Below the pieces are notes generated by a model, which was not told the origin of the DNA, did no database searches, and saw only the letters and a program-made list of their open reading frames with translations. Positions 9,744 to 63,635 of a DNA stretch of 64,000 nucleotides are shown piece after piece (the first letter of the stretch is position 1; every line of letters begins with the position of its first letter). Made by a program: the position numbers and the translations under genes. The stretch comes from an uncultured Pseudomonadales bacterium (GTDB taxonomy: Bacteria > Patescibacteriota > Microgenomatia > UBA1400 > PJMF01). The DNA is taken from contig CAYUES010000001.1 in the NCBI GenBank assembly GCA_964443885.1, positions 4,949 through 68,948 on the forward strand. Direction: 5' to 3'.

Positions 9744-9762
9744 ATGTACTTCTGATTCTGGT

Positions 9763-10758: not shown

Positions 10759-10843
10759 ATCTACAAGGTATTGTATACTCAAAGCTAGATTTTGAGAAAA
10801 GTACTTACTTTTTAGGCCAATTACTAGACCTATAACAAGAAAT

Positions 10844-15035: not shown

Positions 15036-16328
15036 CTATGCAGTTTGGGTTTGTGCAGGTGTTTGCTGTTGATAGTGTTGGGCGATTTCAAAGTTAATCT
15101 GTGCTAGACGATTATACTTTGCGGTGCGTTCACCTCGATTAGTAGGACCAAACTTGGCGTAGTCAGAACCCACCCCCACTGCAAAATCAGCAATGAAGTC
15201 ATCGTTGGTTTCGCCACTCCGGTGTGACATCACGATCTGCCAGTTAGCAGCCTTCGCAACTTTAATCACCTCGATTGTTTCTGTAATCGTACCGACCTGG
15301 TTTGGTTTGACCAGCAGTGTATTACAAAGTTTATTGGCAATGGCATTTTCTAGCTTTGCTTTATTAGTAGCCAGGAAACTATCGCCGACGATCTTGGTAG
15401 TTTCACCAATCTCGGCTGTCACTGCCTTCCACATATTCGTGTCATCTTCCTGGTAGGGGTCTTCTAGGTAGAATACATTGTACATATCGCGCATTTTTTT
15501 ATAGTATGCCAGTAGTTCCTCGCCAGAATACGGTTGTGAACGATCTTTTATCGTATAACGGCCACCTGAATATAACTGTTCAGCCGCGACATCAACACCA
15601 AAGAACAAATCTTGAGTAAAGGTATACGGCGTGGCTTTGATAGTTTCGACCATGATCTCAAAAACGTCACTATTACTATACAGGTTTGGAGTGAAGCCAC
15701 CGACTAGTCCCACCGAGTGAATTGCTCCTTTTAAAATCAACACTTCTTCGAGTTTTTGAAAAATAGTGACAGCCATGTCGAGTGAGCCTTCATAACTCAA
15801 GTGACTAGCAGGAATAACTTGAAACTCTTGGAAGTCTAAGTTATTTGCTCCATGCTCTCCTCCATTTACCACGGTGTAGATACAGGTTGGAATTGTCAGT
15901 GATTGGGTCAGCTGATACTTTTGCATGATGTAGTAGTACAGAGGGACGTTCTGGGAAAGTGCGCCAGCCTTGAGGGTGGCCTGGGAAACAGCGAGGACGG
16001 CGTTTACCCCGAGCTTTGATTTATTTGGTGTGCCATCTAACTGGATTAAAATATTGTCAATTTCTTCTTGATTAGTGGGATCTTTGCCAATAATTTGTGG
16101 CGCAATATAGGTATTAATATAGTTGACGGCCGTCAAGACACCTTTGCCGAGCATGCGGTTGGGATCTTTGTCCCGTAGCTCTAGTGCTTCATACTTTCCA
16201 ATTGAAGTACCAGTGGGAACACTAGTTGCCACAATACCCCCTGTATCAAGCCAAAGTGTGCACTCAATAGTAGGCCAACCTCGAGAGTCGAGGATTTCAC
16301 GCGCGTATATTCCTTGAATGATTGCCAT
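15036..16328 (-). CDS. eno: Enolase (copy 1, in glycolytic operon)
   Basis: MAIIQGIYAREILDSRGWPTIE...SHRSGETNDDFIADFAVG...RGERTAKYNRL. Full-length enolase. Note ETND in place of canonical ETED and RGER in place of RSER. Confidence 0.9.
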   Translation of the reverse strand: MAIIQGIYAREILDSRGWPTIECTLWLDTGGIVATSVPTGTSIGKYEALELRDKDPNRMLGKGVLTAVNYINTYIAPQIIGKDPTNQEEIDNILIQLDGTPNKSKLGVNAVLAVSQATLKAGALSQNVPLYYYIMQKYQLTQSLTIPTCIYTVVNGGEHGANNLDFQEFQVIPASHLSYEGSLDMAVTIFQKLEEVLILKGAIHSVGLVGGFTPNLYSNSDVFEIMVETIKATPYTFTQDLFFGVDVAAEQLYSGGRYTIKDRSQPYSGEELLAYYKKMRDMYNVFYLEDPYQEDDTNMWKAVTAEIGETTKIVGDSFLATNKAKLENAIANKLCNTLLVKPNQVGTITETIEVIKVAKAANWQIVMSHRSGETNDDFIADFAVGVGSDYAKFGPTNRGERTAKYNRLAQINFEIAQHYQQQTPAQTQTA

Positions 16329-29798: not shown

Positions 29799-30434
29799 TC
29801 AAAATACAATATTCTTTACTTCGTTGATCATCTTGGCTTTTATCTCTTCCCAACTCACATCTTTGATCATACGTGGCAGAGGCTGTGCTTCTGCATCTTC
29901 AAAATAAACGAGCGATTTTAAAATGTGAGCTTGATTATAATCTACAGCAGAATACTTGGTTTTTGCCTTTTCAAGTAACTCTGGCAAATGATATATACTA
30001 AACAAAAAGAACAAATCCACAAAGTCTTTTTTACTCCCTCTCATGCTGACTGTTTGCAACTTGGTACAGGCAATATCAAGCACAGAACTAAGCTGTATTT
30101 CTTGCCAGTGACCAAGGGGTTCAAGCAATGGGTAGTGATACTCCAAAAACTGCAGTTTGACACCATCAACATAGGTATTTAATGTCCCTGTAGCAAGCTC
30201 AGTGTTGTTAAGTTGTCCTAATCCAGCAACTTCTTTTTCAAGTTGCAGAGGATTAAATTGCTCTGTACAGAAAAAATCCAAATCTTCAGACTCACGATGC
30301 CCTATCTGTAAAGATAGTCCTGTGCCTCCTGACAAATAAAAAGATTTTAGAAACTCAGGCTGTAATTGATGAATTTTTTCAACAAGTTTTGCAGTTTTGC
30401 TGGGTAGTGTTTCGGGGTAAAATGTTGTGCTCAT
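29799..30434 (-). CDS. AbiEii/AbiGii-family nucleotidyltransferase (type IV toxin-antitoxin toxin, DUF1814/PF08843)
   Basis: YLSGGTGLSLQIGHRESEDLDFF matches the AbiEii signature (GGTaLxxxxxHRxSxDlDf). Track start 30452 is TTG; ATG at 30434 overlaps the upstream gene stop as ATGA. Confidence 0.8.
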   Translation of the reverse strand: MSTTFYPETLPSKTAKLVEKIHQLQPEFLKSFYLSGGTGLSLQIGHRESEDLDFFCTEQFNPLQLEKEVAGLGQLNNTELATGTLNTYVDGVKLQFLEYHYPLLEPLGHWQEIQLSSVLDIACTKLQTVSMRGSKKDFVDLFFLFSIYHLPELLEKAKTKYSAVDYNQAHILKSLVYFEDAEAQPLPRMIKDVSWEEIKAKMINEVKNIVF

Positions 30435-30664
30435 GACAGGTAAATCCGCCAAAAATTACTTGATTTAGGTTGTAATTTTAATTGTGGGAGTAAGTTCTGT
30501 AGCTCTACTCTATTGGTCTGCTTAAAAAGCCAGTTTAGTGCTTCAGTATTGCCTTTATCAAGCAGTGTTTGAATGATGTATTTTTTGTGTTTTGACCAAT
30601 CTAGTTCATCTAAATTATCACCCCAAAAATAGGCTTCTAACTGCGTGGGAATCTGTAATTTCAT
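30431..30664 (-). CDS. Small protein translationally coupled to AbiEii toxin gene; candidate antitoxin/partner (not AbiEi-like)
   Basis: 77-aa ORF from ATG 30664 (TATAAT 7 nt upstream). Stop TGA overlaps AbiEii ATG (ATGA at 30431-30434). No wHTH/AbiEi signature seen. Confidence 0.5.
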   Translation of the reverse strand: MKLQIPTQLEAYFWGDNLDELDWSKHKKYIIQTLLDKGNTEALNWLFKQTNRVELQNLLPQLKLQPKSSNFWRIYLS

Positions 30665-32199: not shown

Positions 32200-32241
32200 A
32201 TTTTGTTCAACGTGATATTTTACCACGCGATAATTTTACTG

Positions 32242-32313
32242 TGCACCCAGCGGGAATCGAACCCACACAACTTGTTCCGAAGACAAGTGCCCTATCCGTT
32301 AGGCTATGGGTGC
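32242..32313 (-). tRNA. tRNA-Arg (anticodon TCG), no encoded CCA
   Basis: Reverse complement: acceptor GCACCCA/TGGGTGC, anticodon stem CTTGT/ACAAG with loop CTTCGGA, T-loop TTCGATT. Confidence 0.8.
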
Positions 32314-32516
32314 ATAGTCGCCTGCAAATGATATCACATGAGCAAGCTGTAACTATCCTGGATTATACCAACTTTCCTCAAGTATCGCATCACACAGAAC
32401 ACGAGTCGTACCAAAAGTCAAAATCGCACACAGAACCAAGGATTAAAAAGCACGGTGTTTCCAAGTTTTCTCCTACTCCCAAAATTGATCATAAAGGTCT
32501 ATACTCCAGAGGTAAT

Positions 32517-33206
32517 ATGAGTTCCTATTACGAATTAGTCAACAAAACTTTTAATCTTTCCCACCTTCGCGAGTACTTGCACGACAAATTTTCTGTTAAC
32601 GAGCAATCGTTCATTAATCCATTTATCACCGTGGCGCGTGAGCCAGGCAGTGGTGGCGCACCAATCGCCAAGGCTGTTGCCGAGAAGCTCGGCTTTGAGT
32701 TTATCGATGATCAAATTATCGAGGAAATCGCCCGCTCTACCAAACGTCGCAAGGCAGTCATTAAAGAAATTGATGAAAAAAGCCGCACCCGCATCGAAGA
32801 CGTGGTCCACTCGCTGGTGAATATCGAGTATTTAGACGAAGAAACGTATATTTCCGAGTTGGTACGCAGTATTCTCTCGTATGCGCACAAAGGCCGCTGT
32901 GTGATTCTAGGCCGTGGTGCCAACTTTATTACGCCATTTGCCAAAGGGTTGCATGTCAGTATCACCGCTCCGTATGAAGTTCGCGTCGAGCGGGCGATGC
33001 ACTATGAAGGTCTTTCTGAAGAGCAAGCCAAGGAAGTTATCAAAAAAGTTGAGGATGAACGGACAGACTTTGTAAAACAGTACTTTCGCAAAAATTTAAG
33101 TAAACGTAATGTCTTTGACATGACGTTAAACACCCACTACTTTACGGTACCCCAAGCCCGGGACGTGATCGTTGAAGCATTTCATCAAAAATTTGCGTCG
33201 CGGTAA
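32517..33206 (+). CDS. Cytidylate kinase-like family protein (PF13189-like P-loop protein)
   Basis: ITVAREPGSGGAPIAKAVAEKLGFEFIDDQIIEE resembles cytidylate-kinase-like P-loop region. ATG 32517 with GAGGT SD. The track ORF 5' extension (32241) runs through tRNA-Arg and is rejected. Confidence 0.6.
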   Translation: MSSYYELVNKTFNLSHLREYLHDKFSVNEQSFINPFITVAREPGSGGAPIAKAVAEKLGFEFIDDQIIEEIARSTKRRKAVIKEIDEKSRTRIEDVVHSLVNIEYLDEETYISELVRSILSYAHKGRCVILGRGANFITPFAKGLHVSITAPYEVRVERAMHYEGLSEEQAKEVIKKVEDERTDFVKQYFRKNLSKRNVFDMTLNTHYFTVPQARDVIVEAFHQKFASR

Positions 33207-33319: not shown

Positions 33320-33403
33320 GCCGAAATGGCGGAACTGGTAGACGCGCACGCTTCAGGAGCGTGTGGGAGCAATCCCATGGAGGTTCGAGTCCTCTTTTCG
33401 GCA
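33320..33403 (+). tRNA. tRNA-Leu (anticodon CAG), type II
   Basis: Acceptor GCCGAAA/TTTCGGC, anticodon stem CACGC/GCGTG with loop TTCAGGA, long variable arm. Confidence 0.85.
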
Positions 33404-33428
33404 CAGGCTGGTATAATACAGTCGTAAC

Positions 33429-33510
33429 GCCCGGGTGGTGAAATGGTATACACGTACGCTTGAGGTGCGTATGCCGCAAGGTGTGGAGGTTCAACTCCTC
33501 TCCCGGGCAC
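33429..33510 (+). tRNA. tRNA-Leu (anticodon GAG), type II
   Basis: Acceptor GCCCGGG/CCCGGGC, anticodon stem TACGC/GCGTA with loop TTGAGGT, long variable arm. Confidence 0.85.
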
Positions 33511-33557
33511 AAGTAGTACACTGCGGAAAAATAATTCGCAGTTATAATCACTATATT

Positions 33558-33631
33558 GGACGCTTAGCTCAGTTGGTTAGAGCACTGCGTTTACATCGCA
33601 GGTGTCGGGGGTTCGAGTCCCTCAGCGTCCA
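33558..33631 (+). tRNA. tRNA-Val (anticodon TAC)
   Basis: Acceptor GGACGCT/AGCGTCC, D-arm GCTCAGTTGGTTAGAGC, anticodon stem CTGCG/CGCAG with loop TTTACAT. Confidence 0.85.
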
Positions 33632-33670
33632 CAAGTATTTGAAAATACGCTACAATACTGTAGTATTCGA

Positions 33671-33743
33671 GCCAAGCTAGCCAAGTCGGTCACGGCGCAT
33701 GTCTGAAAAACATGAGATTGAGGTTCGATTCCTCAGCTTGGCA
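33671..33743 (+). tRNA. tRNA-Phe (anticodon GAA)
   Basis: Acceptor GCCAAGC/GCTTGGC, anticodon stem CATGT/ACATG with loop CTGAAAA, T-loop TTCGATT. Confidence 0.8.
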
Positions 33744-33775
33744 CATTCAATATAGGTATCCACTACTTGAATGTG

Positions 33776-43604: not shown

Positions 43605-45158
43605 TTAGTCGCGCAAATCGCGGTTAATACTCCCAATCAGTTGTGGACCTTGATAAATCATGCCTGTGATAAGTTGAACTAAGTCTGCTCCCAAGGCTAT
43701 TTTTTGGCGCGCGTCTTCGGCAGAGAAAATGCCCCCAGTCCCAATAATCGTAAAGCGATTTTTATAGTGTTTTTTTGTCAAAGCAATCAATCTATTGGAA
43801 CGCTCAAAAGTAGGCTTGCCACTCAAGTTACCCTTGCGTTTTTGCCATTCTTTGGCGTCTTCGGTAGCGACGGCTGGATTAGTTTTGTCTTTTGTGAGGT
43901 TGCCCAAAATCACGCCAGCAGTTTTGTGTTTTGCGATGACCGCGAGCAGTTGCAGGCTTTCTTTTTCTGATTGATCAATCGGCATTTTGACATAGATCGG
44001 CTTGGTGACTTTCAGTTTATCAAGTGCAGTCAGTAGTATTTCCAACCTGTTTGTCGTGGTGAATGGTTCGCCACCAAACGTATTCGGGCAACTAATATTC
44101 AACTCATAGTAAGAATGACCGACTTTTGATTTCTCAAATAATCGAAAACAAGTAATAATGTCGGTAATCTGCTCTTTGTCAGTTTCGTAGGCAGCATTGG
44201 TGCTCCCGATACTAATTCCAACCGGGATTTTGAACTGTAACGGAGTAAGTTTTTTGATAATTTCCTGTGCGCCGATGTTTTTAAGACCTTTATTAACGAG
44301 CAGTGCTTTGGAGTTCGGGAAACGCCCAAGCATTGGCGAAGTATTGCCGTCATAAGAATGCAGTGTCACCGTACCAACGGTGTGCCAACCAAACCCGACC
44401 GAAGGCAGAATTTGTGTTAAGTCGGCGTTGTAGTCAAAGCCCGCTGATAAGCCAACTGGATTAGGAAAAACAATGCCATCACGTTTGGTGGCGAGCGCAG
44501 GGTCATAGTACGCAAAGAGTGCGCTATTGATGGCTTGAGTTATCGAGAAGTTGCCAAAAAATGCACCCAACTTTGTCATCGTATCGTGAACGAGCTCAGG
44601 ATCGAAAAGAAAGAAAATTGGCTTTAAAACAGTGGTGTACAAAAAACTAATCACCGAGTGAAAGACAGTCTTGGTGCTGTATCCAGATTTTTGGCTGTAG
44701 AGCGCAACGTAGGTTTGGGTAGTGATAAATAACAGCGTGCTGACAGCCGCAGAAATTAAACAGTACGAACACCACGCTTTAATCACCACTCCCATTAGAA
44801 ATACTAAGTAAAATGAAAAAAGTAAGCCACCGATCGTAATTAGTTGCAGTAAATCCAGTGGTGAGGTTTTACGAATGAAGGCAGACTTGGAAGTTTTGAA
44901 AAAAGAACTTTTTTTGAAGTCTAGTTCCAGAAAATGCATAACAGCGAGCACAAAAACAGTTAGGTAGTAACCCAAACCGAGTGCTGAAAGTGGAAGCGGT
45001 CCAATCTGGGCGTACGGACTACTTAAAACAGTTTCGCATTGAAAACCTGGCGTACACGGTGGAATCACCCCCGCAACCTTTTCATAGGTTAAGTAACTGG
45101 CATCGGCAATGCCAATCAAAGATAAAACGATCAGCAGCAAAGACATGAAAACATTCAT
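43605..45158 (-). CDS. pyrD: Fusion protein: N-terminal VKOR (vitamin K epoxide reductase) membrane domain (aa 1 to about 160; nt 44679..45158) plus class-2 dihydroorotate dehydrogenase (PyrD; nt 43605..44678)
   Basis: VKOR half: LTYEKVAGVIPPCTPGFQCETVLSSPYAQIGPLPLSALGLGYY (loop Cys pair plus TVLSSPYA motif) and AWCSYCLISA (TM CxxC). DHODH half: FLFDPELVHDTM (class-2 N-terminal helices, cf. E. coli LFQLDPERAHEFT), FPNPVGLSAGFD, GFGWHTVGTVT, NISCPNT, GNLSGKP, IIGTGGIFS, GADLVQLITG. Single uninterrupted ORF from ATG 45158. Confidence 0.8.
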   Translation of the reverse strand: MNVFMSLLLIVLSLIGIADASYLTYEKVAGVIPPCTPGFQCETVLSSPYAQIGPLPLSALGLGYYLTVFVLAVMHFLELDFKKSSFFKTSKSAFIRKTSPLDLLQLITIGGLLFSFYLVFLMGVVIKAWCSYCLISAAVSTLLFITTQTYVALYSQKSGYSTKTVFHSVISFLYTTVLKPIFFLFDPELVHDTMTKLGAFFGNFSITQAINSALFAYYDPALATKRDGIVFPNPVGLSAGFDYNADLTQILPSVGFGWHTVGTVTLHSYDGNTSPMLGRFPNSKALLVNKGLKNIGAQEIIKKLTPLQFKIPVGISIGSTNAAYETDKEQITDIITCFRLFEKSKVGHSYYELNISCPNTFGGEPFTTTNRLEILLTALDKLKVTKPIYVKMPIDQSEKESLQLLAVIAKHKTAGVILGNLTKDKTNPAVATEDAKEWQKRKGNLSGKPTFERSNRLIALTKKHYKNRFTIIGTGGIFSAEDARQKIALGADLVQLITGMIYQGPQLIGSINRDLRD

Positions 45159-46055: not shown

Positions 46056-47873
46056 ATGGTACTTGAAGAACCTCGGACAGAAAATCAAAAACGAATGACG
46101 GAACTGCTGCAAAAAATAGATGCAGTAGCCAGTTTGTCACATACAGAGTACGCCAAACTCGTCAAGAAATTTCCTCAAACAGATGGTGATGTCTACTCAA
46201 AAGAAGATATTATTCGTGCCTACCGCGAGTTACAAACCACTGTTGGTTTCAAAAGTACCCCGGCCGAGTTTATTGCTAAAGTCCGCATGAAACCAATGCG
46301 CACGCAATCTGGAGTGGCGCCAATTACTGTTTTGACCAAACCATTCCCCTGCCCTGGCAAGTGTATTTTTTGTCCAAATGACATCAGAATGCCCAAGAGT
46401 TACTTGAGTGATGAACCAGGTGCGCAGCGCGCTGAGCGAAACTACTTTGATCCATACTTGCAAACATATAATCGCCTGCAGGCGCTGCATAATATTGGCC
46501 ATGAAGTTGATAAGGCAGAGATTATAGTTTTGGGTGGCACTTGGTCGTATTATCCTGAAGCGTATCAGATTTGGTTTATTAAGGAATGTTTTAAAGCGCT
46601 TAATGATTTTGGACTGCGTGATGATCGGCTGGTGGTAGAAAGACGGTATGCCGACATGCAAGCGACATTGGAAAAAAACTTTCAGCATGCACCAACCAAC
46701 AGTCCAACCGAGAACGAACACAACTTGGAAAAGCACAAAATTGACGGCACTGTATTAGATAAAAGTTACAACCAAACTGTTTCGCAGTTGTACGTCGCAC
46801 CCGAGCGACTCGGTGGTTTTGATGAGTATCAACAAGCCAGCTGGGATGAACTTATAGCCGAGCAACTAGTAAACGAAACAGCCCAAGTTCGCAACGTGGG
46901 ACTCGTGATTGAAACTCGGCCTGATAATATTTCTGAAGCTGAAGTGTTGCGTGTTCGCCGCCTGGGTTGTACCAAAACGCAGATTGGGATTCAAAGTTTA
47001 CAAGATGAAGTTTTGACCAAAAACAAACGTGGACATGATGTGGCTGCAACTCGTAAAGCTTTTCGATTACTGCGCCGAGCTGGCTTTAAAATTCATGCGC
47101 ACTGGATGGCAAATTTGTATGGTTCTAGTGTTGAGCTAGATAAAAAAGACTTTAGTGAACTTTTCAGTGATCCTGATTTTATGCCAGATGAACTGAAAGT
47201 CTATCCATGTTCATTAATTGGTAGTGCCGAGTTAATGCAGTACTACAAAAAAGGTTTGTGGAAACCGTACTCACACGAGGAACTCTTGGATGTCGTCACT
47301 TTCGCAATCAAAAGTACGCCTGAGTACTGTCGGTTAACACGCATTATTCGTGACATTCCTTCTACTGACATTGTGGTGGGAAATAAAATGACCAACTTCA
47401 GACAAGTCGCTGAAGAAGCCTTGAAAAAAGATGGTGAACACTCCAACGATATTCGTGAACGTGAAATTAGAGATCAAAAATATACGCGTGAGCAGCTGGT
47501 TCTGAAAGAAACTCACTACGCTACTTCAGTTAGTGAAGAGTATTTTTTGCAGTTTGTGATCCCCGAGACGAATCAAATTATTGGGTTCCTACGCTTGAGC
47601 CTGCCTAAAGAGGCGGCTTTCATCCCTGAACTGGCAACTGCAGCTTTAATTCGAGAAGTCCACGTTTATGGTGACTTGGTGAAACTGGGAACTCGCACCT
47701 CAGATACTGCGCAACATCGTGGGCTTGGCTCAGAGTTATTAGTACGAGCACAGGAAATTGCAAAAGAAGCTGAGTTTAAGAAACTTACAGTCATTTCTGC
47801 GATTGGCACGCGCGAGTACTACCGCAAACGCGGCTTTAGTGATGGTGAGTTGTATCAACACCTCGAGCTGTAG
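46056..47873 (+). CDS. Elp3-family radical SAM/GNAT protein (bacterial homolog of Elongator catalytic subunit; tRNA U34 cm5 modification)
   Basis: FPCPGKCIFCPND (Cys cluster), YFDPYLQTYNRLQALHNIGHEVDKAEIIVLGGTWSYYP (Elp3 signature), C-terminal GNAT IREVHVYGDLVKLG...HRGLGSELL...VISAIGTREYYRKRGF. 605 aa. TATAAT 8 nt upstream of ATG. Confidence 0.8.
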   Translation: MVLEEPRTENQKRMTELLQKIDAVASLSHTEYAKLVKKFPQTDGDVYSKEDIIRAYRELQTTVGFKSTPAEFIAKVRMKPMRTQSGVAPITVLTKPFPCPGKCIFCPNDIRMPKSYLSDEPGAQRAERNYFDPYLQTYNRLQALHNIGHEVDKAEIIVLGGTWSYYPEAYQIWFIKECFKALNDFGLRDDRLVVERRYADMQATLEKNFQHAPTNSPTENEHNLEKHKIDGTVLDKSYNQTVSQLYVAPERLGGFDEYQQASWDELIAEQLVNETAQVRNVGLVIETRPDNISEAEVLRVRRLGCTKTQIGIQSLQDEVLTKNKRGHDVAATRKAFRLLRRAGFKIHAHWMANLYGSSVELDKKDFSELFSDPDFMPDELKVYPCSLIGSAELMQYYKKGLWKPYSHEELLDVVTFAIKSTPEYCRLTRIIRDIPSTDIVVGNKMTNFRQVAEEALKKDGEHSNDIREREIRDQKYTREQLVLKETHYATSVSEEYFLQFVIPETNQIIGFLRLSLPKEAAFIPELATAALIREVHVYGDLVKLGTRTSDTAQHRGLGSELLVRAQEIAKEAEFKKLTVISAIGTREYYRKRGFSDGELYQHLEL

Positions 47874-48992: not shown

Positions 48993-50495
48993 TTATACTA
49001 TTATTTTATCACTACCTGGCAGAAAATGGGTAAGCCATTGTTGCTGCCAGCCTAACCCAAAGCCAGGCAACTCCCGTAACGCTTCGGGAGTTTGCGGCTG
49101 AAGTGCCGCAAGCATCAGTAACTGCGCATCTGTCAGCACTTCGGCAACTGATGAAAGCTGGAGTTTTTTCTTGAGATTTTTGCGTTGACTGTCCAAGTTT
49201 TTGATTCTGGTATGTTGCTCAACTGTGCAAAATAATCTCGAAAATAAGGTATTTTTTGCAGCGCTTTCAGGTATTAAAGTAAGCTCACAACTATCACAGT
49301 TCTGACAAAGATCTTGGCTTTCTTCATTAAAGTACTGCAAAATTGTGATCATCCGGCAGTTTGTACTCAACGCATAGTTCTGCATTTTCTTAAGTTTCGC
49401 TCTTTTATTTTTCTTGTCTTCTGCTGATGTTATTTGTTCCGCCAGACCCAGATGAATCCGCTCATTTTTACTATTGAACAGTAGGTAGCAGTAGGCCGCC
49501 TCTCCGCCACGGCCACCGCGCCCGATTTCTTGATAGTATGCTTCAAGACTACTTGGATAGTGATAATGAATGACAAAAGAAATATTGCTTTTATCGACGC
49601 CCATGCCAAATGCCGAAGTAGCGACAACTACGTCCAGATGATTCGACATAAATAACTTTTGAATGTACTGGCGTTGTTGCGGTTTGAGATCACCATGATA
49701 ACAACCTACTTTGATTTTTCCGTGCAGATTTTCTTGGAGTAGTTCGCTAAGATACTCGGCTGCTTTGCGTGTACTGACATAAATTATTCCTGCTTCGTTA
49801 GAATGCTTTTCTAGTAAAAAGTACAACATTATTTCTTGAATTTGCCTGCTTTCTGTCTTGAAAATTCGAATATGCAAGTTTGATCTAAAGAATGACTGTC
49901 TGAAAAATACCGGTTTCACTAACTGTAGTGATTTTTGAATATCCACCAGAGTTTTGGTGGTAGCGGTTGCGGTAAAAGCAGCAATGGTTGGTCGTTTCCC
50001 TACGCTCGCAATACTACTTATAAATCTATGAATTGATAGATACGGCGGCCTAAAATCATGCCCCCACTCACTTATACAGTGTGCTTCATCGATCACGATG
50101 AGTGAAATCGTAAGTTTGCGACAAAGTTTGGTGAAGCGTTTTTGTTGCAAGCGTTCTGGTGAGATATACAGTAATTTATACTTGTTGAGCTTTAAAAGTT
50201 GGATTCGCGCATTCACTTCATCTTGCGAAAGTGTGCTAGAAATATACGTGGCATAGATGCCTTTGCGCAACAGTGTGTCTACTTGATCTTGCATTAACGC
50301 AATCAGTGGCGTGACCACTAGAGTTAGACCCGGGAGTAGTAAGGCTGGAAGTTGAAAACAAATCGATTTACCTGCCCCAGTTGGCAGCAAAGCCACTGTG
50401 TCTTTGCCCTCTAAAATCTTGGAAATTATTTCTTTTTGCTGTCCGCGAAACGCAGAATAGCTGAAGTACTTGTACAAGGCCGATTCGAGTTCCAT
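48993..50495 (-). CDS. recQ: ATP-dependent DNA helicase RecQ
   Basis: LLPTGAGKSICFQLPAL (motif I), VVTPLIALMQDQV, DEAHCISEWGHDFRPPY (DEAH plus RecQ aromatic loop), C-terminal Zn-binding Cys cluster. Confidence 0.9.
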   Translation of the reverse strand: MELESALYKYFSYSAFRGQQKEIISKILEGKDTVALLPTGAGKSICFQLPALLLPGLTLVVTPLIALMQDQVDTLLRKGIYATYISSTLSQDEVNARIQLLKLNKYKLLYISPERLQQKRFTKLCRKLTISLIVIDEAHCISEWGHDFRPPYLSIHRFISSIASVGKRPTIAAFTATATTKTLVDIQKSLQLVKPVFFRQSFFRSNLHIRIFKTESRQIQEIMLYFLLEKHSNEAGIIYVSTRKAAEYLSELLQENLHGKIKVGCYHGDLKPQQRQYIQKLFMSNHLDVVVATSAFGMGVDKSNISFVIHYHYPSSLEAYYQEIGRGGRGGEAAYCYLLFNSKNERIHLGLAEQITSAEDKKNKRAKLKKMQNYALSTNCRMITILQYFNEESQDLCQNCDSCELTLIPESAAKNTLFSRLFCTVEQHTRIKNLDSQRKNLKKKLQLSSVAEVLTDAQLLMLAALQPQTPEALRELPGFGLGWQQQWLTHFLPGSDKIIV

Positions 50496-50545
50496 CGAGA
50501 CATACTACAACCAGTAACTTACATAAAGCGTAGCGTCAAAGTGTA

Positions 50546-51811
50546 CTACTCTTCTTTTTCAGCTTCAGAATTTTCTGATTCTGTCAGCTTTGATGGATCT
50601 GACTTGTGAGTCGCAGTAGCCGTTTTGGGAGTAAAGTATTTTTTCTTTTTCAATTTATCAGGTAGTAATGAAGTATTTTCAGGATACATCTCGTAGCCTT
50701 TACCGTACCCCAGATCTTTCATCAAAGAAGTTGGCGCATTGCGTAGCTCCATCGGAATTGGTAAATTACCAAGCCCTTCAACATCGCGCAGTGCTGCAAA
50801 GTATGCATCATAGGCACTGCGATCTTTTTTACAGCGACATAAATACGCAACGCCGTGTGCCAAGTTAATCTGTGCTTCAGGATATCCCACATGATGAACA
50901 GCTTCAAAAATTGTATTAGCTACGACCAGTGCAGTGGGAGCCGCCAAGCCAATATCTTCACTCGCAAAAATCACCATTCTGCGCGCAATAAATAATGGAT
51001 CTTCTCCGGCATGAACCATCCGTGCCAAGTAGTATAAAGCTCCATCCACATTACTAGCACGCATTGACTTGATGAAAGCACTAATCGTGTCGTAGTGCTC
51101 TTCACCTTTTTTGTCGTACTTAATGAAGTTGGATTGGATCGTTGTTTTTAATGTTTCAATGGTAATTGTTTCGTATAAAGTCAAAGTTTGCTCAACCGCA
51201 TTCAACAGTTTGCGGCCATCTCCAGAGGAATAATTGAGTAACCATTCTTTTGCATCATCGGTGACTGTCGGTGTAACACCCGTTTGTTTTTCCCAGAAAA
51301 GCAACGCTTTTGTAAGTAAAAGTTCTAAATCTTCAGTTTGAAGTTGTTTGAGCGTAAAGACTTTAGTTCGCGAAAGTAATGCTGAGATAACTTCAAAACT
51401 TGGGTTTTCAGTGGTCGCGCCAATCAGAAGAATCGCGCCCGTTTCAACATAGGGAAGCAAAAAATCTTGCTGGGCTTTATTGAATCGATGAATTTCATCC
51501 AAGAAAAGTACGGGTGCAAGATCCATGCTTCCAAGTAAAGAATTTTTGCGTGCAGCTGCTTCATTGACGATCTCGCGGATGTCAGCTTTGCCTGCAGAGA
51601 CTGCCGAGAGTTCATAGAACTCACGATTTTGAGTTTTGGCAATAATTCGTGCTAATGAAGTTTTACCGACGCCCGGTGGTCCCCAAAAAATAATCGAAAA
51701 CAACTGATCTTTTTCTAAAGCAACCCGAATTGGTTTACCAGGGCCAATCAAGTGCTGTTGACCGATATAGTCATCAAGAGAGTGTGGGCGTAGATCTGTG
51801 GCAAGCGACAT
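50546..51811 (-). CDS. rarA: Replication-associated recombination protein A (RarA/MgsA AAA+ ATPase)
   Basis: LRPHSLDDYIGQQHL...FWGPPGVGKTSLARIIA...LFLDEIHRFNKAQQD, C-terminal MgsA helical domain. Confidence 0.9.
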   Translation of the reverse strand: MSLATDLRPHSLDDYIGQQHLIGPGKPIRVALEKDQLFSIIFWGPPGVGKTSLARIIAKTQNREFYELSAVSAGKADIREIVNEAAARKNSLLGSMDLAPVLFLDEIHRFNKAQQDFLLPYVETGAILLIGATTENPSFEVISALLSRTKVFTLKQLQTEDLELLLTKALLFWEKQTGVTPTVTDDAKEWLLNYSSGDGRKLLNAVEQTLTLYETITIETLKTTIQSNFIKYDKKGEEHYDTISAFIKSMRASNVDGALYYLARMVHAGEDPLFIARRMVIFASEDIGLAAPTALVVANTIFEAVHHVGYPEAQINLAHGVAYLCRCKKDRSAYDAYFAALRDVEGLGNLPIPMELRNAPTSLMKDLGYGKGYEMYPENTSLLPDKLKKKKYFTPKTATATHKSDPSKLTESENSEAEKEE

Positions 51812-51922
51812 AGCTACACTCTAACAGGTTTTTTTGTTTTGGAAAAGATTCGGGTTTACTGGTGCTGTGGTCTGCAACTCTGAAAGTCGGAAAATCAAAT
51901 GACTTATGTAGTAATTTACTGG

Positions 51923-52867
51923 TTATATATTCTTAAGTACTGAATAAAAATCATTCTTTATGGTTTCGGTGACTAGTACTTCGACGATTCCCACGTCTGG
52001 CTGGCCGTAGTAAATCAAACTACCGAGCGGCAACAATAAAACTGCTGCTACTGCCGCTAGATCTTCTTCACCCATAACCAGAAGGTGCTGCCATTTTTTT
52101 TCTGAAATTTCTTCAATTTTTGCTACCAACTCCACGGTAATTTCACCTGCAGGATTAGTCGCCCTGACTTGAATCAGATCCAGCAGTTTACTGGAAGGCT
52201 GATACTCTACTCGCTTCTTTTTAAAATCAATGATCGCCGCAGTGTACTGCCAATTATTTGCAAAAAATGTCTCAAAAGTTGAGTCACCGACCAAACAGAT
52301 AATTGCAGATGATTGATTTTCTCTTGGCTCTGTCACAATCGTGCCGTGTGGTTTAGAAAAATAACTGCGCTGTCGCTCAGTCAATTTCAAATTCTTTGCA
52401 AAGATATTTTTATAGACGTTTCCCTCGCGATCGATTTGCCCTTTTCTGATTCTTTTACTCGAGATTATTTCGCCGACTTCATCAAATAAAAGTGGCGCTT
52501 TCTCAACATGAAGTGCAGTCAAACTAAGTGAGATTCTTTTATTATTAATAGCTTCTGCACCTGTCACTGTCTCAGGAGTTACACAAAGTGCTTCGATACG
52601 AGCATCAGAAGTAGTCGGTCCATAGACGTCTGTTAAGGCTGTAATCTCACAAGAAATATTCTGATCCTTACAAAAATCAGCGACTGCTTTTTCACGCACA
52701 TCATAAGGCTCCAGCTGATCATACAAATCTTTATGAAGGGTAATCTCTGGCTTAGTCAGACCGATAACCAGCTGCTCCGCCAGACTGGCAGCGTACTTCA
52801 GAAAAGCCCGATGTCCTGCATGAAAATGATCAAATGTGCCCCCAAGTGCTAGTACTGTATACTTCAT
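51923..52867 (-). CDS. Fusion of archaeal-type phosphopantetheine adenylyltransferase (HxGH cytidylyltransferase) with DUF359 (GTP-dependent dephospho-CoA kinase-like) domain
   Basis: N-terminus LALGGTFDHFHAGH (nucleotidyltransferase HxGH). C-terminal half ICLVGDSTFE...RATNPAGEITVEL...LVMGEEDLAAVAAVLLLPLGSLIYYGQPDVGIV, which I recall as DUF359/PF04019 motifs (GEEDL, YGQP). Confidence 0.6.
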   Translation of the reverse strand: MKYTVLALGGTFDHFHAGHRAFLKYAASLAEQLVIGLTKPEITLHKDLYDQLEPYDVREKAVADFCKDQNISCEITALTDVYGPTTSDARIEALCVTPETVTGAEAINNKRISLSLTALHVEKAPLLFDEVGEIISSKRIRKGQIDREGNVYKNIFAKNLKLTERQRSYFSKPHGTIVTEPRENQSSAIICLVGDSTFETFFANNWQYTAAIIDFKKKRVEYQPSSKLLDLIQVRATNPAGEITVELVAKIEEISEKKWQHLLVMGEEDLAAVAAVLLLPLGSLIYYGQPDVGIVEVLVTETIKNDFYSVLKNI

Positions 52868-52891
52868 AAAATTTTAAGATTACTTATTTAT

Positions 52892-53701
52892 TCACTCAGC
52901 TAACGAAATATATCCAGAATCTTGAACGACCAATTTTTCATCTAGTAACTGATCGAGTGCACTCTTAAAATGCTCCGGGTTTGACCGCAATTTTTCTATT
53001 AATTCGCTAGTATGCTGCCTGTTTTCTTGAGTCAGCAACCGAATAATCTCACCTCGTACTTGGCGCAGTGACCCAGTAAACTTACTTTGCTTAGTATACT
53101 GTTTACTTCGCCGATTTTGGTTGGGCAAAATTTTCTTCAGGTAACTACCATAGTCCATCAACGCCCAGTACCACTCTCGAGGATTTTCTTCATCCACGGT
53201 TTCTTGTATGTGTGCCAGCAGTTCTGTATCCGTAATACTCTCTTGGAGTGGAAAAAAGTGATAGAGATAGATTGTTCGGACGTTTGTCTCGATTAAAACC
53301 ACTGGCTGATCATACGCAAACGCACAGATCGCACTGGCTGTGTATGGGCCAATTCCAGGAAGTTCCAAAAGCTCTTGCTCTGTTTGTGGAAAGTGGCCAG
53401 CGTACGTTTCTTCAACCGCTTTAGCACACTGAAGTGCGTACTTTGCGCGACGGTTGTAGCCCAAGCCTTGCCACATAATTAAAACCTCGCTCAAAGGAGC
53501 TGCTGCTAAAACTTTTGTACTTGGAAACTTTTCAATAAATGCAAGATACTTAGGAATCACCCGCTCGACTTGAGTTTGTTGGAGCATCAACTCAGAAACC
53601 AAAATATGGTATGGATCACGAGTCAAACGCCAAGGCAACGTATGTCGCCCATGGTGAAAGTACCAAGATCTGATGAATTTTTGAAATTTTTGAGTATCCA
53701 T
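52892..53701 (-). CDS. HhH-GPD DNA glycosylase, MutY/Nth-like, apparently lacking the 4Fe-4S cluster loop
   Basis: LPWRLTRDPYHILVSELMLQQTQV, RAKYAL, ELPGIGPYTASAI (HhH-GPD), WALMDYGS (catalytic Asp). No Cx6Cx2Cx5C cluster in the C-terminal region. Confidence 0.7.
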   Translation of the reverse strand: MDTQKFQKFIRSWYFHHGRHTLPWRLTRDPYHILVSELMLQQTQVERVIPKYLAFIEKFPSTKVLAAAPLSEVLIMWQGLGYNRRAKYALQCAKAVEETYAGHFPQTEQELLELPGIGPYTASAICAFAYDQPVVLIETNVRTIYLYHFFPLQESITDTELLAHIQETVDEENPREWYWALMDYGSYLKKILPNQNRRSKQYTKQSKFTGSLRQVRGEIIRLLTQENRQHTSELIEKLRSNPEHFKSALDQLLDEKLVVQDSGYISLAE

Positions 53702-53841
53702 TATCTAACTCTTAATCGGCACGGCAATTCCTAGTTTCTGAGTTAACCACGGAGTGATCGGTGGTTCAACCATCAAAGTCATAAAGATTACCCAAAAACC
53801 ACCACGGGCTGCACTACAAACATAATAAGTAAGAAGTTGCA

Positions 53842-54576
53842 TCACTCATTTTTTGGCAAAACAAACCCCAAGGTCAAGTAGACAGTTTTTCCTCTCATTC
53901 TTTCAAATTGAGGGTTTTCTCCTAAAAACTCTTCAGTAGGAGTGATTTCTTGGTAATTTTGTAGTTGTAATCCTGCCTCTATAAATGGCTGTAAGTAACT
54001 ACGAGTTGGTCTAAAATAAAATGGAAACATTTTTCCTGCCATTTCTATTTCACCTTTTACGTCTTCTCCATAGGTAGTGAGCCCAGAGTATCGTGAATTT
54101 GCACGCAACATTTTTTGTAAATATGGATACATGGGATGCACAACTGTAAAAACAAACTTGCCACCGGGTTTGAGAACACGAGCAACTTCTTTTCCTAAAC
54201 CAGACAAATTTTCAACATACATTAAAACAAAGCGAGAAATCGCAATATCAAAAGACTGATCTGCAAAAGGAAGTGGTTCATTCAAATCAACAAGTTGAGT
54301 TGGTAAATCAGGATGTTTTTCTCTAGCTTTTTCTAGTTGGACCTCAGAGCCGTCTACTGCGGTTACAATAGCACCAGCGCTTATAAGTTGTACTGCTACA
54401 AACCCATCTCCACAACCTAAATCTACAACTGTTCTTCCCGCTACTTCATCAATCAACCTCTTAAAAACAGGTAGTTCTGCAGCTTCTTCAAAGGTCAGAT
54501 CAAATTTTTTTGTTTCTTTTGCTTCGTGAAAATTTTGTGCTCCACCATTCCACTTTTCTGCATCTTTTATTGTCAT
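53842..54576 (-). CDS. Class I SAM-dependent methyltransferase
   Basis: VVDLGCGDGFVAVQL (motif I), AISRFVLMYV, Methyltransf_11-like. Confidence 0.7.
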   Translation of the reverse strand: MTIKDAEKWNGGAQNFHEAKETKKFDLTFEEAAELPVFKRLIDEVAGRTVVDLGCGDGFVAVQLISAGAIVTAVDGSEVQLEKAREKHPDLPTQLVDLNEPLPFADQSFDIAISRFVLMYVENLSGLGKEVARVLKPGGKFVFTVVHPMYPYLQKMLRANSRYSGLTTYGEDVKGEIEMAGKMFPFYFRPTRSYLQPFIEAGLQLQNYQEITPTEEFLGENPQFERMRGKTVYLTLGFVLPKNE

Positions 54577-54644
54577 TGAAAGTATTATACAGGATGTAAA
54601 TCACTGTATCTGCTGATGAAAATGGAAAATTGATGATACAAGTG

Positions 54645-54719
54645 TCGGGGAGACAGGACTCGAACCTGCGACCTCACGCTCCCAAAGCGCGCATTCTAGC
54701 CAACTGAACTACTCCCCGA
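54645..54719 (-). tRNA. tRNA-Pro (anticodon TGG)
   Basis: Reverse complement: acceptor CGGGGAG/CTCCCCG, anticodon stem CGCGC/GCGTG with loop TTTGGGA, T-arm GCAGGTTCGAGTCCTGT. Confidence 0.8.
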
Positions 54720-54793
54720 TTGTTACGATATTCTATCCCAAGTATGTGTCTTGAGCCAGTGATGATTATCACTTTTGGAATTATTGAACAACG

Positions 54794-54878
54794 TGCCTCG
54801 AGAGGGAATCGAACCCACACGACTTTTGAGGTCATCAGATTTTAAGTCTGACGCGTCTACCAATTCCGCCATCGAGGC
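54794..54878 (-). tRNA. tRNA-Leu (anticodon TAA), type II
   Basis: Reverse complement: acceptor GCCTCGA/TCGAGGC, anticodon stem TCAGA/TCTGA with loop CTTAAAA, long variable arm, T-loop TTCGATT. Confidence 0.8.
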
Positions 54879-55000
54879 TTGTGCAACTGTTACATTACAA
54901 CGTATGCAATTATAACACTCTCTTCGCGAAAAATAGTATATAATCTAAGGCTTGGGAAAATGCCCAGACACGTAGAGTCGGCTTTCTACAGAAATTAGTT

Positions 55001-60495: not shown

Positions 60496-61560
60496 ATGAA
60501 AGACACATCTAAAGCATTCATGCGCGAGTGGGTAAATGATGGCATTCGTGCATTTTTTAAGTTGCGCGGGTTTAGAGAAGTCGAAACGCCTCTTTTTGTA
60601 GCCAATCCAGATCCAGAGCCAACAATTGAACTTTTCAAAACAATTCACAAAGCTAACGATTACTCAGTTACTGGCTACTTAAATGGCAGTCCTGAGTTTA
60701 TGATGAAGAAGTTACTTGCAGCAGGTTCAGGAAATATTTTCCAGATCTGCAAGAGTTTTCGTAATGGCGAACCTGTCAGTTCCAGACATAATCCTGAGTT
60801 TTCAATCCTAGAGTGGTATCGTGTCGAAGCTGACTACCGCGATATCATGACTGACTGTGAAAACTTATTTATCTTCCTCCACACCTATATTACTGCTCTA
60901 CGTGAGAAGAAACTGGCACATGCATATGATGTAGAGGTTCTGCCTGAAAGTGATCTGCAACTGACTTTCAAAGGTACCACCTACGATCTGCGTGGTCCAT
61001 GGGAGCGACTAAGTGTGCCCGAGGCTTTTGAAAAATATGCTCAGGTGAGCAAAGATGAACTGTTAGACGAAGCACTTTTACTAGCGAAAGCAAAAGAAAA
61101 AGGCTACTCAGTTACCGAAACTACTAGCTACGACGATGCGTTTTATCAAATCATGCTCAATGAAATCGAGCCACACCTGGGTGAAACAAAACCTACATTT
61201 TTGTACGACTATCCTGCTAGCCAAGCCGCACTTTCCAAGAAAAAAGCAGAAGATCCACGACTGGCAGAGCGGTTTGAGTTGTACTTGGGTGGCTTAGAAC
61301 TCGGTAACGCCTTTTCTGAACTTGCTGACTGGCAAGAACAGCAAGAACGTTTTACCAATCAACTAGCGACTCGCCGCGCCAATGCTCAAGATGCATGGCA
61401 GATTGATCAGCAGTTTATTGATGCGCTCAAAACAGGCTTCCCGCGCTGTGGTGGGATTGCGGTGGGTGTGGATCGATTAGTAATGCTTTTTGCAGATGCT
61501 TCAGAAATTTCCGAAGTGCTCTTCTTCCCTGCTGATGATATTTTTGAACTAGCCAAGTAG
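60496..61560 (+). CDS. epmA: Elongation factor P--(R)-beta-lysine ligase (EpmA/PoxA/GenX; class II LysRS paralog)
   Basis: RGFREVETP (motif 1), ICKSFRNGEPVSSRHNPEFSILEWY (motif 2 FRNE...HNPEF), C-terminal GGIAVGVDRLVM (motif 3). About 350 aa, no anticodon-binding domain. Confidence 0.8.
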   Translation: MKDTSKAFMREWVNDGIRAFFKLRGFREVETPLFVANPDPEPTIELFKTIHKANDYSVTGYLNGSPEFMMKKLLAAGSGNIFQICKSFRNGEPVSSRHNPEFSILEWYRVEADYRDIMTDCENLFIFLHTYITALREKKLAHAYDVEVLPESDLQLTFKGTTYDLRGPWERLSVPEAFEKYAQVSKDELLDEALLLAKAKEKGYSVTETTSYDDAFYQIMLNEIEPHLGETKPTFLYDYPASQAALSKKKAEDPRLAERFELYLGGLELGNAFSELADWQEQQERFTNQLATRRANAQDAWQIDQQFIDALKTGFPRCGGIAVGVDRLVMLFADASEISEVLFFPADDIFELAK

Positions 61561-61697
61561 TTGATTCTCTATAAAGTATCAATTCAATTTTTTGTAATGC
61601 TTAACGTGCAAGTGGCACAGATAGCCCTAGATATTTAGCTGTTTTGGAATCTATCTCGATCAGGTACAATATCGCTTGCTTCAATTCAAAAGGATCT

Positions 61698-62261
61698 ATG
61701 ACAATTAACGGCGGCAACATCAAAAAAGGTATGTATCTTCTTTTCAAGAATGAACCATACCAAGTTACCAAAACTGACTTTATGAGTCCTGGCAAAGGCT
61801 CTGCGTTTATGCGCGTCAAAATGCGTAATATCAAAACTGGTAACTCGCTTGAATTCACTTTTAAATCTACTGAATCAGTCGAAGAAATCGACGTGATGAA
61901 TACTGAGATGCAGTTTTTGTATGCTGACGATACCGAAGCGGTCTTCATGGATAACCGCAGCTTTGATCAAATGAGTGTCCCGATCGCTTTAGTTGCAGAA
62001 GATATTCAACTCCTTACTCCAGAAGCATCTGTCTATGTAGTAATTTACGATGACAAAGCAATTGGCGTGCGTCTGCCTCCAAAAGTTACGCTGACTATCA
62101 CCTATGCAGAAGAAGCTGTCGCAGGTAACACTGTTGGTAATGCTCGCAAAGAAGCTGAACTTGAGACAGGAATGAAGATCTTGGTGCCTTTATTTGTAAA
62201 AACAGGCGATAAAATTATTATCGACACCGCTACCCACGAGTACGTTTCACGCGCGAACTAG
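61698..62261 (+). CDS. efp: Elongation factor P
   Basis: KKGMYLLFKNEPYQVTKTDFMSPGKGSAFMRVKMRN (KOW domain with conserved loop Lys in PGKGSA), three-domain length. ATG 61698 with AAAGGA SD. Track start 61644 rejected. Confidence 0.9.
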   Translation: MTINGGNIKKGMYLLFKNEPYQVTKTDFMSPGKGSAFMRVKMRNIKTGNSLEFTFKSTESVEEIDVMNTEMQFLYADDTEAVFMDNRSFDQMSVPIALVAEDIQLLTPEASVYVVIYDDKAIGVRLPPKVTLTITYAEEAVAGNTVGNARKEAELETGMKILVPLFVKTGDKIIIDTATHEYVSRAN

Positions 62262-62363: not shown

Positions 62364-63635
62364 TTACCCATGTTTCTGGATGTGTAACTCACGCTCTATC
62401 TCGAGTAGACGGTTGTATTTAGCTACACGCTCGCCTCTTGTTGGCCCCACCTTTATGTAAATGGCACCAACTGCTACGGCTAGATCAACCAGTGCAGTAT
62501 CGTTTGTTTCCCCACCACCACGATGTGACGGAATCGTACTCATGCCATGTTGCTTCGCCAGCATGCAGGTCTCGATAGTTTCAGATACACTACCGATTTG
62601 ATTGAGCTTAATTAGGATACTCGAGATTGCTTGGAGTTCAATAGCTTTCTGTAGTCTCTCCACACTCGTAACGGTGACGTCATCACCAATCAACGGGACG
62701 TGGTGCGCATCGCACATCTGTTTGCAGACTTGCCAGCTTGCCCAGTCATCTTCATGCAGCGGATCTTCTAAAGTCACAATTGGATATTTTTCTAATAATG
62801 TCTGGAAGTACTCAATCACTTCAGTTGGTGAAAGTGTTCGGTTTTCCAAAGCAAAGTGATACATGCCATCTTTGTAAAACTCATTGGCAGCAGCATCAAT
62901 CGAGAAACCCACGTCTACACCAGCCTGATACCCTGCTCTTTCAATTGCCTGGAGCATATATGAAAATGGTGCTTCGTTGGTAGTAATACCGCTTGGTGCA
63001 AAAGCGCCTTCATTCCCAACATTGGTAGATAAGTTATTTTCTTGCAAGATCTTAGCCAACGCATGGTAACATTCCAACATAATTCGTACACTCTCTGTAC
63101 GGTAACCTTGCTTTAATACACTAAAGCAGTATTCTTGCAGATCAGTTGAGTGGTCAGCATGTTTCCCGCCTTCAATTACGACAGCCATTGGTTGGGGTAG
63201 CACTTCAAATGTTGCGCCGGTCTGAAAGGTGTCACGCAGATGCAGGTACAAGGGTTTTTTCTGTGAGTTGGCGGCGGCACGGGCGGTGGCGACCGAGACA
63301 GCTAAGATGGCATTGCCACCCAAGCGTGATTTTTGCGGTGTCCCATCCAACTCAATCATTGTTTTATCGATTAGTTTCTGATTATTGGCATCCAAACCTA
63401 GCAAATGCGGCGCAATTTCTTCGTGGACGTTTCGAATTGCTTGCAGCATGCCTTTGCCGTTGTATCGTGCTTGATCTCCATCTACCAAGACCGATGCCTC
63501 GTGTGAGCCAGCTGAAGCCCCATATGGTACTGATGCGAGGCCAACACTGCCATCTTCAACCGTGACTTTGACTTCAATTGAAGGATACCCTCCCGAAGCA
63601 ATAATTTCGTAACACTGGATAGCGGTAATCTGCAT
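62364..63635 (-). CDS. Enolase (copy 2, divergent paralog)
   Basis: MQITAIQCYEIIASGGYPSIEVKV...SHRGGGETNDTALVDLAVAVGAIYIKVGPTRGERVAKYNRL. Full-length enolase fold. Shares the ETND/RGER variants with copy 1. Confidence 0.8.
   Translation of the reverse strand: MQITAIQCYEIIASGGYPSIEVKVTVEDGSVGLASVPYGASAGSHEASVLVDGDQARYNGKGMLQAIRNVHEEIAPHLLGLDANNQKLIDKTMIELDGTPQKSRLGGNAILAVSVATARAAANSQKKPLYLHLRDTFQTGATFEVLPQPMAVVIEGGKHADHSTDLQEYCFSVLKQGYRTESVRIMLECYHALAKILQENNLSTNVGNEGAFAPSGITTNEAPFSYMLQAIERAGYQAGVDVGFSIDAAANEFYKDGMYHFALENRTLSPTEVIEYFQTLLEKYPIVTLEDPLHEDDWASWQVCKQMCDAHHVPLIGDDVTVTSVERLQKAIELQAISSILIKLNQIGSVSETIETCMLAKQHGMSTIPSHRGGGETNDTALVDLAVAVGAIYIKVGPTRGERVAKYNRLLEIERELHIQKHG

Follow-up and report, generated by a model that had tools for sequence, protein, structure and literature searches.

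A predicted bifunctional enzyme of archaeal type for the final two reactions of coenzyme A synthesis in a Candidate Phyla Radiation bacterium

We analysed a 64,000-nt stretch of contig CAYUES010000001.1 (positions 4,949 to 68,948; assembly GCA_964443885.1, titled as an uncultured Pseudomonadales bacterium and placed by GTDB in the Patescibacteriota, class Microgenomatia), referred to here as the window. One of its genes encodes an archaeal-type phosphopantetheine adenylyltransferase (PPAT) joined to a DUF359 domain, the family that includes the GTP-dependent dephospho-coenzyme A kinase (DPCK) of archaea. The N-terminus of the fusion protein agrees with the consensus start of its family, and the gene and its domains are listed in Table 1. 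A preliminary description, made from the sequence alone, had read the gene in this way and suggested a search with the Pfam profiles of the two domains. Both profiles score above gathering: CTP_transf_like (PF01467) matches residues 8–142 with 43.8 bits (cutoff 21), and DUF359 (PF04019) matches residues 202–313 with 80.9 bits (cutoff 25), covering profile positions 6–124 of 126. These matches exceed the curated thresholds and lie far beyond chance.

Table 1 Features of the fusion gene and its upstream gap, in window coordinates
Feature	Coordinates	Strand	Remarks
PPAT-DPCK gene	51923..52867	minus	complete, 314 aa, ATG start; archaeal-type 'CoA synthase'
PPAT domain, archaeal/COG1019 type	52409..52861	minus	~residues 3-153; NF001985 129.4 bits; 3DO8
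Linker and DUF359 N-terminal helix	52313..52408	minus	~residues 154-185, LTERQRSYFSKPHG; model and Foldseek alignment
DUF359 / GTP-dependent dephospho-CoA kinase catalytic core	51926..52312	minus	~residues 186-314; PF04019 80.9 bits
Intergenic gap, 24 nt, AT-rich	52868..52891	minus	between the fusion gene and the upstream MutY-like gene

The N-terminal half carries the motifs GGTFDHFHAGH (HFHAGH at residues 14–19, with the HxGH signature at H16, G18 and H19) and ISSKRIR (residues 135–141). The first of these is present as described, but it had also been taken as a mark of the archaeal type, which it is not, since bacterial CoaD bears an equivalent T/HxGH. The archaeal-type assignment follows instead from the NCBIfam profiles: residues 3–153 score 129.4 bits against NF001985 (archaeal-type PPAT; PRK00777; COG1019), where the cutoff is 104, versus 15.5 bits against the bacterial CoaD model TIGR01510, where it is 103.3. 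An FMN or NMN adenylyltransferase or a cytidylyltransferase, acting in flavin, NAD or cell-envelope metabolism, would be a very improbable identity for this domain. There are sub-threshold matches to FAD_syn (PF06574; 13.1 bits against a gathering cutoff of 27, over residues 4–33 only), NMNAT, RfaE and TagD, and relatives in Roizmanbacteria bear a true NMNAT-like (NMN adenylyltransferase-like) domain. However, the archaeal PPAT model is the sole one above its cutoff, with the rest far below theirs, and in the Roizmanbacteria proteins the NMNAT-like domain is an added N-terminal module, distinct from a PPAT domain that still scores 183–189 bits for PPAT. The riboflavin/FAD-related function that had been raised at the outset is therefore unsupported.

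In the C-terminal half, the motifs NPAGE (residues 238–242), GEEDL (266–270) and YGQP (287–290), on which the DUF359 identity had been based, are all found, alongside D195, D214, N238 and D269, and the PF04019 score confirms the assignment. A phmmer search of the fusion protein against all PDB sequences returned three matches in total: 8JVC_A, 'GTP-dependent dephospho-CoA kinase' (TK1697, EC 2.7.1.237; E = 2.1e-17, query residues 189–308), 3DO8_A, 'phosphopantetheine adenylyltransferase' from Archaeoglobus fulgidus (E = 1.1e-15, query residues 6–151), and a marginal cytidylyltransferase. No bacterial CoaD structure was retrieved by sequence in this search.

An AlphaFold2 model of the protein, with an alignment of 46 family members as input, is of high confidence, with a mean pLDDT (predicted local distance difference test) of 95.4 and a predicted template modelling (TM) score of 0.89. 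When the model was searched against the PDB with Foldseek, the TK1697 structures were among the top matches (TM 0.72–0.75 on the target, with 168 aligned columns of a 172-residue DPCK), with E = 5.7e-13 and TM 0.72 over the 168 columns for 8JVC and TM 0.74 for 8JVG_B. The A. fulgidus PPAT 3DO8 was also among them (TM 0.79–0.85, E = 1.5e-8), and bacterial CoaD structures ranked lower (TM ~0.6, E ~1e-4). Because the alignment to 8JVC spans approximately the whole DPCK, residues ~154–185, modelled with a helix at 164–170 and a strand at 176–178, form the N-terminal helix of the kinase domain and not a free linker. The profile HMMs, the sequence matches to 8JVC and 3DO8 and the predicted fold all support the proposal that archaeal-type PPAT and DPCK are combined on one polypeptide.

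TK1697 was demonstrated to be a GTP-dependent DPCK by Shimosaka et al. (2019, mBio; PMC6650551). Replacement of its Asp48 or Asp67 by alanine dramatically reduced growth, and that of Asp125 had a milder effect; the primers used for mutagenesis place these residues in the sequences GD48VVTENV, YD67LKTKRKEY and SGEED125LAAIP (PMC6650551). A HMMER alignment pairs the three with D195, D214 and D269 of the fusion protein, all of which are 100% conserved among 123 aligned fused homologues. The same holds for G194, G266, E267, E268, Y287, G288 and Q289, and G175 is conserved at 99%. In the PPAT site, H16, G18 and H19 are 100% conserved in the same set and G9, G10, F12, D13, R58, N108, R111, I140 and R141 show little or no variation; conservation of the PPAT half was confirmed on a second, more divergent set of homologues. 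This conservation of the active-site residues in the 123 homologues indicates that purifying selection acts on both catalytic centres, and so speaks against a protein that is decaying or has kept a single function. The fusion gene is real and very probably functional.

Conservation of the site bears on whether the bacterial DUF359 domains have come to catalyse a different kinase or pyrophosphokinase reaction, or to use another phosphate donor, and are not strict DPCKs. The family is distantly related to thiamine pyrophosphokinases (TPKs), with two catalytic aspartates common to both (PMC6650551), the DUF359 half is only ~30–33% identical to TK1697, and its score against an NCBIfam DPCK equivalog, given below, is under the cutoff. 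Set against this, the three tested aspartates are kept, as are the motifs GEEDL, YGQP and NPxG; the structure closest in fold is a DPCK, with no TPK among the top matches; and fusion to PPAT, the maker of the DPCK substrate, has been retained across hundreds of lineages. We consider such a change of function improbable.

The architecture has a precedent. PPAT–arCOG04076 (DUF359) fusions of uncultured archaea (for example AIF21550.1, group II/III Euryarchaeota) provided the clue from which archaeal DPCK was identified experimentally (PMC6650551). By published architecture, as opposed to sequence, they share both domains and their order, PPAT then DUF359, with the window protein, but their hosts are archaea and the host here is a bacterium of the Candidate Phyla Radiation (CPR). 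The PSI-BLAST search of Shimosaka et al. returned archaeal members only (PMC6650551). The window protein is a bacterial member of an architecture already published for archaea, and in that sense routine in a known family. TK1697 (PDB 8JVC/8JVF/8JVG) is homologous to the whole DPCK domain, with the equivalents of Asp48, Asp67 and Asp125 kept, but it is a standalone protein of 177 residues (PDB chain), whereas the window domain is fused, diverged in sequence and below the Thermococcales equivalog cutoff.

Archaeal PPATs of COG1019 (Pyrococcus abyssi PPAT, TK2128 and A. fulgidus 3DO8, the best PPAT fold match) share the HxGH and ISSxRIR motifs but are standalone or have other C-terminal extensions, unlike the DUF359 fusion. 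We observed high-GC Thermoplasmata/Methanobacteriota PPATs with Arg-rich C-terminal extensions of ~130–150 aa (L029:5270-6148, L030:9638-10861 and L031:9842-10840); these extensions showed no similarity to the DUF359 half in tblastn (E ≤ 1e-3) and represent a different PPAT architecture. Eukaryotic CoA synthase (COASY) is likewise a bifunctional PPAT and DPCK (PMC6650551), with the same pair of consecutive activities in the same order on a single polypeptide. Its DPCK, however, is of the P-loop CoaE type and non-homologous to DUF359, which has a TPK-like derived Rossmann fold, and the DUF359 fusion is an independent solution analogous to COASY. Bacterial CoaD and CoaE also catalyse both reactions, but CoaD is related only distantly, at the level of the superfamily (15.5 bits, TM ~0.6), and CoaE has an unrelated fold.

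We conclude that the window protein is, in all likelihood, a bifunctional enzyme for the last two steps of CoA synthesis in a CPR bacterium, most likely replacing CoaD and CoaE and probably acting on scavenged 4′-phosphopantetheine. The archaeal-type PPAT domain would adenylylate 4′-phosphopantetheine with ATP, yielding dephospho-CoA, and the DUF359 domain would phosphorylate the 3′-OH of dephospho-CoA, probably with GTP, yielding CoA. The substrate would be scavenged from a host or the community and not made de novo. For mycoplasmas that retain only PPAT and DPCK, scavenging of 4′-phosphopantetheine has been proposed, and Escherichia coli excretes this compound (PMC8721197). The CPR fusion most likely turns imported 4′-phosphopantetheine into CoA. 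Users of CoA are encoded in the window, namely Elp3, two GNAT acetyltransferases and one Acyl_transf_3 protein, and an acetyl-CoA synthetase lies 8 kb from the fusion in one related locus.

Other CoA pathway genes were sought by Pfam or NCBIfam scans of ~50 window open reading frames (ORFs) of at least ~110 aa, some short ones excepted, and by tblastn over the full window in six frames. The tblastn queries were the E. coli CoaE, CoaD, CoaBC and CoaA sequences, validated with Pfam (259, 109, 249 + 109 and 49 bits, respectively). No other CoA pathway gene was found in the window, so the earlier remark that coaD and coaE are not seen there holds. Nor did tblastn detect CoaD, CoaE, CoaBC or CoaA in ~450 kb of sequence flanking the fusion genes of more than 25 genomes. 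As a positive control, the same search picked up canonical CoaBC in L038, which comes from Peribacteria and does not carry a fusion gene.

These searches bear on the possibility that the bifunctional PPAT-DPCK ends a full de novo or pantetheine-salvage pathway, with PanK, CoaBC or archaeal PoK/PPS encoded elsewhere in the genome. The window is 64 kb of that genome, and the canonical CoaBC of L038 indicates that some CPR lineages retain upstream steps. L038 lacks the fusion, however, no upstream gene was seen around the fusions sampled, and Saccharibacteria have been reported without complete CoA and pantothenate modules (PMC11659515). A complete pathway in this bacterium is therefore rather unlikely, though less so than the changes of enzymatic function considered above.

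Several points limit the conclusion that the protein finishes CoA from a scavenged precursor. The absence of canonical CoaD, CoaE, CoaBC and CoaA applies to the window and the flanks of related loci, not to the genome. The C-terminal half scores 74.5 bits against NF041125, the Thermococcales DPCK equivalog, whose cutoff is 300; this model is clade-specific, and the shortfall limits strict orthology to the Thermococcales enzymes and leaves DUF359 family membership intact. The catalytic activity of the bacterial members is predicted from sequence and modelled fold. Finally, the fusion gene lies in a DNA-repair neighbourhood with no CoA-related neighbour gene, a context that neither supports nor contradicts a CoA function. 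If a stand-alone PPAT and DPCK module does operate in these cells, 4′-phosphopantetheine is likely to be a metabolite that CPR cells and their hosts exchange, a possible aid to cultivation.

The window encodes UvrA, UvrB, LexA, a DNA polymerase III delta-like subunit, RecQ, a RarA-like ATPase, a MutY-like glycosylase, elongation factor P (EF-P) and 14 tRNAs. UvrA, UvrB, LexA, polymerase III delta and RecQ identify the host as a bacterium, as had been assumed. GC content is ~42% around the fusion gene and similar in the rest of the window, so that composition does not point to a recent arrival. A gap of 24 nt separates the fusion gene from the MutY-like gene upstream, and one of 111 nt from the RarA-like gene downstream. 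A sequence scan found no terminator within 50400–54900 and no promoter-like site directly upstream of the fusion gene; given the short gap without either type of site, co-transcription with the MutY-like gene is likely.

At least 12 loci share a conserved block comprising the MutY-like gene, the fusion, RarA, RecQ, a 117-aa ORF, a nuclease, Elp3, a methyltransferase and a VKOR–DHODH gene. One of these syntenic loci is labelled Candidatus Woesebacteria, and gene order links the host to Woesebacteria/Microgenomates-type CPR genomes. The shared synteny, together with a native composition, indicates a gene long resident in its CPR lineage. Other loci bearing the fusion are labelled Pacebacteria, Roizmanbacteria, Saccharibacteria, Microgenomates, Levyibacteriota or Patescibacteria, and in a scan of GTDB representatives the closest relative of the fusion protein was 50–51% identical. 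Some metagenome-assembled genomes (MAGs) have titles (Vitreimonas, Methylococcaceae, Limisphaerales, Pseudomonadales) that could be read as spread of the gene beyond the CPR. We rejected this reading because they share gene order and 50–85% protein identity with the window and the labelled Woesebacteria, at 37–47% GC. The public MAGs at L002, L003, L004 and L005–L019, some of them also titled 'Gammaproteobacteria', carry the CPR-type syntenic block, and their taxonomic labels look wrong.

Two further members of the block deserve mention. Elp3 (46056–47873, plus strand), a radical SAM/GNAT protein of tRNA U34 modification, scores 483.7 bits against TIGR01211 (cutoff 350). It is of the archaeal/eukaryotic, acetyl-CoA-dependent type and lies four genes from the fusion in at least eight related loci, at 61–77% identity. 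The VKOR–DHODH protein (43605–45158, minus strand; 517 aa) combines an N-terminal VKOR-like membrane domain (residues 8–143) with a quinone-dependent dihydroorotate dehydrogenase (residues 173–516; NF003652, 269.5 bits, cutoff 267), an odd pairing where a respiratory quinone pool is not expected.

Fusions of this kind are far from confined to the present genome. A word-indexed search returned 605 clusters (90% identity) at E ≤ 1e-3. The best 120 all contain PF01467 and PF04019 and are 309–346 aa long, and 115 of them carry GGTFDxxHxGH, GEEDL and YGQP together. An exhaustive HMMER scan with the C-terminal 156 residues as the query against 1.84 billion 50%-identity representatives found 1,716 DUF359 proteins at E ≤ 1e-3; among the best 150 of these, 119 are fused and 22 standalone (≤200 aa). 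The fusion is a large, conserved family in the Patescibacteria (CPR). Its members appear in databases mostly as 'pantetheine-phosphate adenylyltransferase', otherwise as 'cytidyltransferase-like protein', 'DUF359 domain-containing protein' or 'UPF0218', and none of these names mentions a kinase activity. A literature search with limited reach into subscription papers found no published description of the bacterial fusion. DPCK activity is thus invisible in public annotation, and because annotations leave it unnamed, CoA capability may be under-called in CPR reconstructions. The family also offers a bacterial, mesophilic source of non-P-loop DPCK for biochemistry.

DUF359/arCOG04076 belongs to the pan-archaeal core (PMC6393860). 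An archaeal origin of the fusion is likely, and parsimonious, because both domain types are non-standard for bacteria, DUF359 is near-universal in archaea, and bacterial cases were seen only in CPR-like genomes. The inter-domain transfer first suggested on the basis of the sequence is accordingly the parsimonious view, but rough trees leave the donor, the direction and the number of events unsettled. These neighbour-joining trees, one for each domain as originally proposed, are poorly resolved and contain no verified archaeal fused sequences. In the PPAT tree, the fused bacterial proteins are separate from the standalone archaeal PPATs (Bathyarchaeia, Thaumarchaeota, Methanobacterium, Methanomicrobiales, Thermoplasmata and an Asgard locus) and nested in no single archaeal group. 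The DUF359 tree places the window protein inside a large fused clade, and a second region is formed by TK1697, a standalone Thermoplasmatota protein and several fused proteins.

All four fused proteins whose contigs were inspected have bacterial neighbours (YkuD, VanW, RecA/RecX, RNase Y, HU, FemAB, NusB and RNase III), and this includes fused proteins near TK1697 (P0372 and P0380). Every fused protein that could be placed in a genomic context came from a CPR-like bacterium. A candidate archaeal fused relative, L027 ('Nanoarchaeota'), was rejected: it is a 1-kb binned contig whose nearest relatives on long contigs, P0128 and P0131, lie among bacterial genes, and its label is probably misassigned. 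A pan-archaeal core enzyme is thereby widespread in one bacterial radiation, lengthening the list of archaeal-type genes in the CPR, to which Elp3 also belongs.

In some relatives a 5′ extension of the fusion gene encodes a third domain. L021:9500-11002 and L022:9422-11014 (both plus strand) are single ORFs of 500 and 530 aa. Residues 5–157 of the triple fusion match the archaeal-type NMNAT model NF002243 with 125.8 bits, just below the cutoff of 127, residues 164–317 match PPAT (182.8 bits) and residues 329–499 match DPCK (all NCBIfam). The gene immediately upstream encodes a NAD synthase. L039 has a separate NMNAT-like gene (9528–10004), which overlaps the start of the fusion gene (10001–10990) by 4 nt. 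Weak CoaD-like tblastn matches directly 5′ of the fusion in L021, L022 and L039 were rejected as CoaD, as they correspond to this archaeal-type NMNAT-like domain.

Among the best 120 clusters of homologues of the triple fusion, 117 are at least 460 aa long and 116 contain all three motifs; the named carriers among these 120 are Roizmanbacteria, Patescibacteria or Microgenomates. The triple NMNAT-PPAT-DPCK fusion is common in Roizmanbacteria, and no published account of it was found in the searchable literature. We suggest, tentatively, that many CPR bacteria may finish cofactors with an archaeal-derived toolkit, consisting of PPAT-DPCK and, in Roizmanbacteria-like lineages, NMNAT-PPAT-DPCK beside NAD synthase. 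These episymbionts would then make CoA and NAD from late intermediates of the host (such as 4′-phosphopantetheine and NMN), possibly with GTP in place of ATP as the phosphate donor. Were this true, reconstructions seeking CoaD/CoaE would systematically mis-score CPR bacteria as unable to make CoA.

Several other genes of the window merit mention. A F420-0:gamma-glutamyl ligase-like protein (PF01996; 8997–9743, plus strand) and a PduO-type cobalamin adenosyltransferase (PF01923; 10844–11443, plus strand) are further cofactor 'finishing' enzymes, in a genome probably without de novo synthesis of those cofactors. A class II aminoacyl-tRNA synthetase core (60496–61560, plus strand; 354 aa, tRNA-synt_2 only, without an anticodon-binding domain) lies directly upstream of EF-P (61644–62261, plus strand) and is probably an EF-P lysyl transferase of the EpmA/PoxA type. 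There are two full-length enolase paralogues (15036–16328 and 62364–63635, both minus strand); both align with a single terminal stretch of L003, one with 38% and the other with 72% identity, and are thus quite divergent from each other. A tandem tRNA cluster, Leu-Leu-Val-Phe, occupies 33320–33744 (plus strand). Nearby, a tRNA-Arg (32241–32313, minus strand) overlaps the start of a 321-aa ORF (32241–33206, plus strand), which is probably not a gene. Finally, an AbiEii-like toxin nucleotidyltransferase fragment (29799–30452, minus strand; profile positions 10–44 only) lies within a low-GC stretch at 26–32 kb (36–38% GC), possibly a degraded mobile or defence island.

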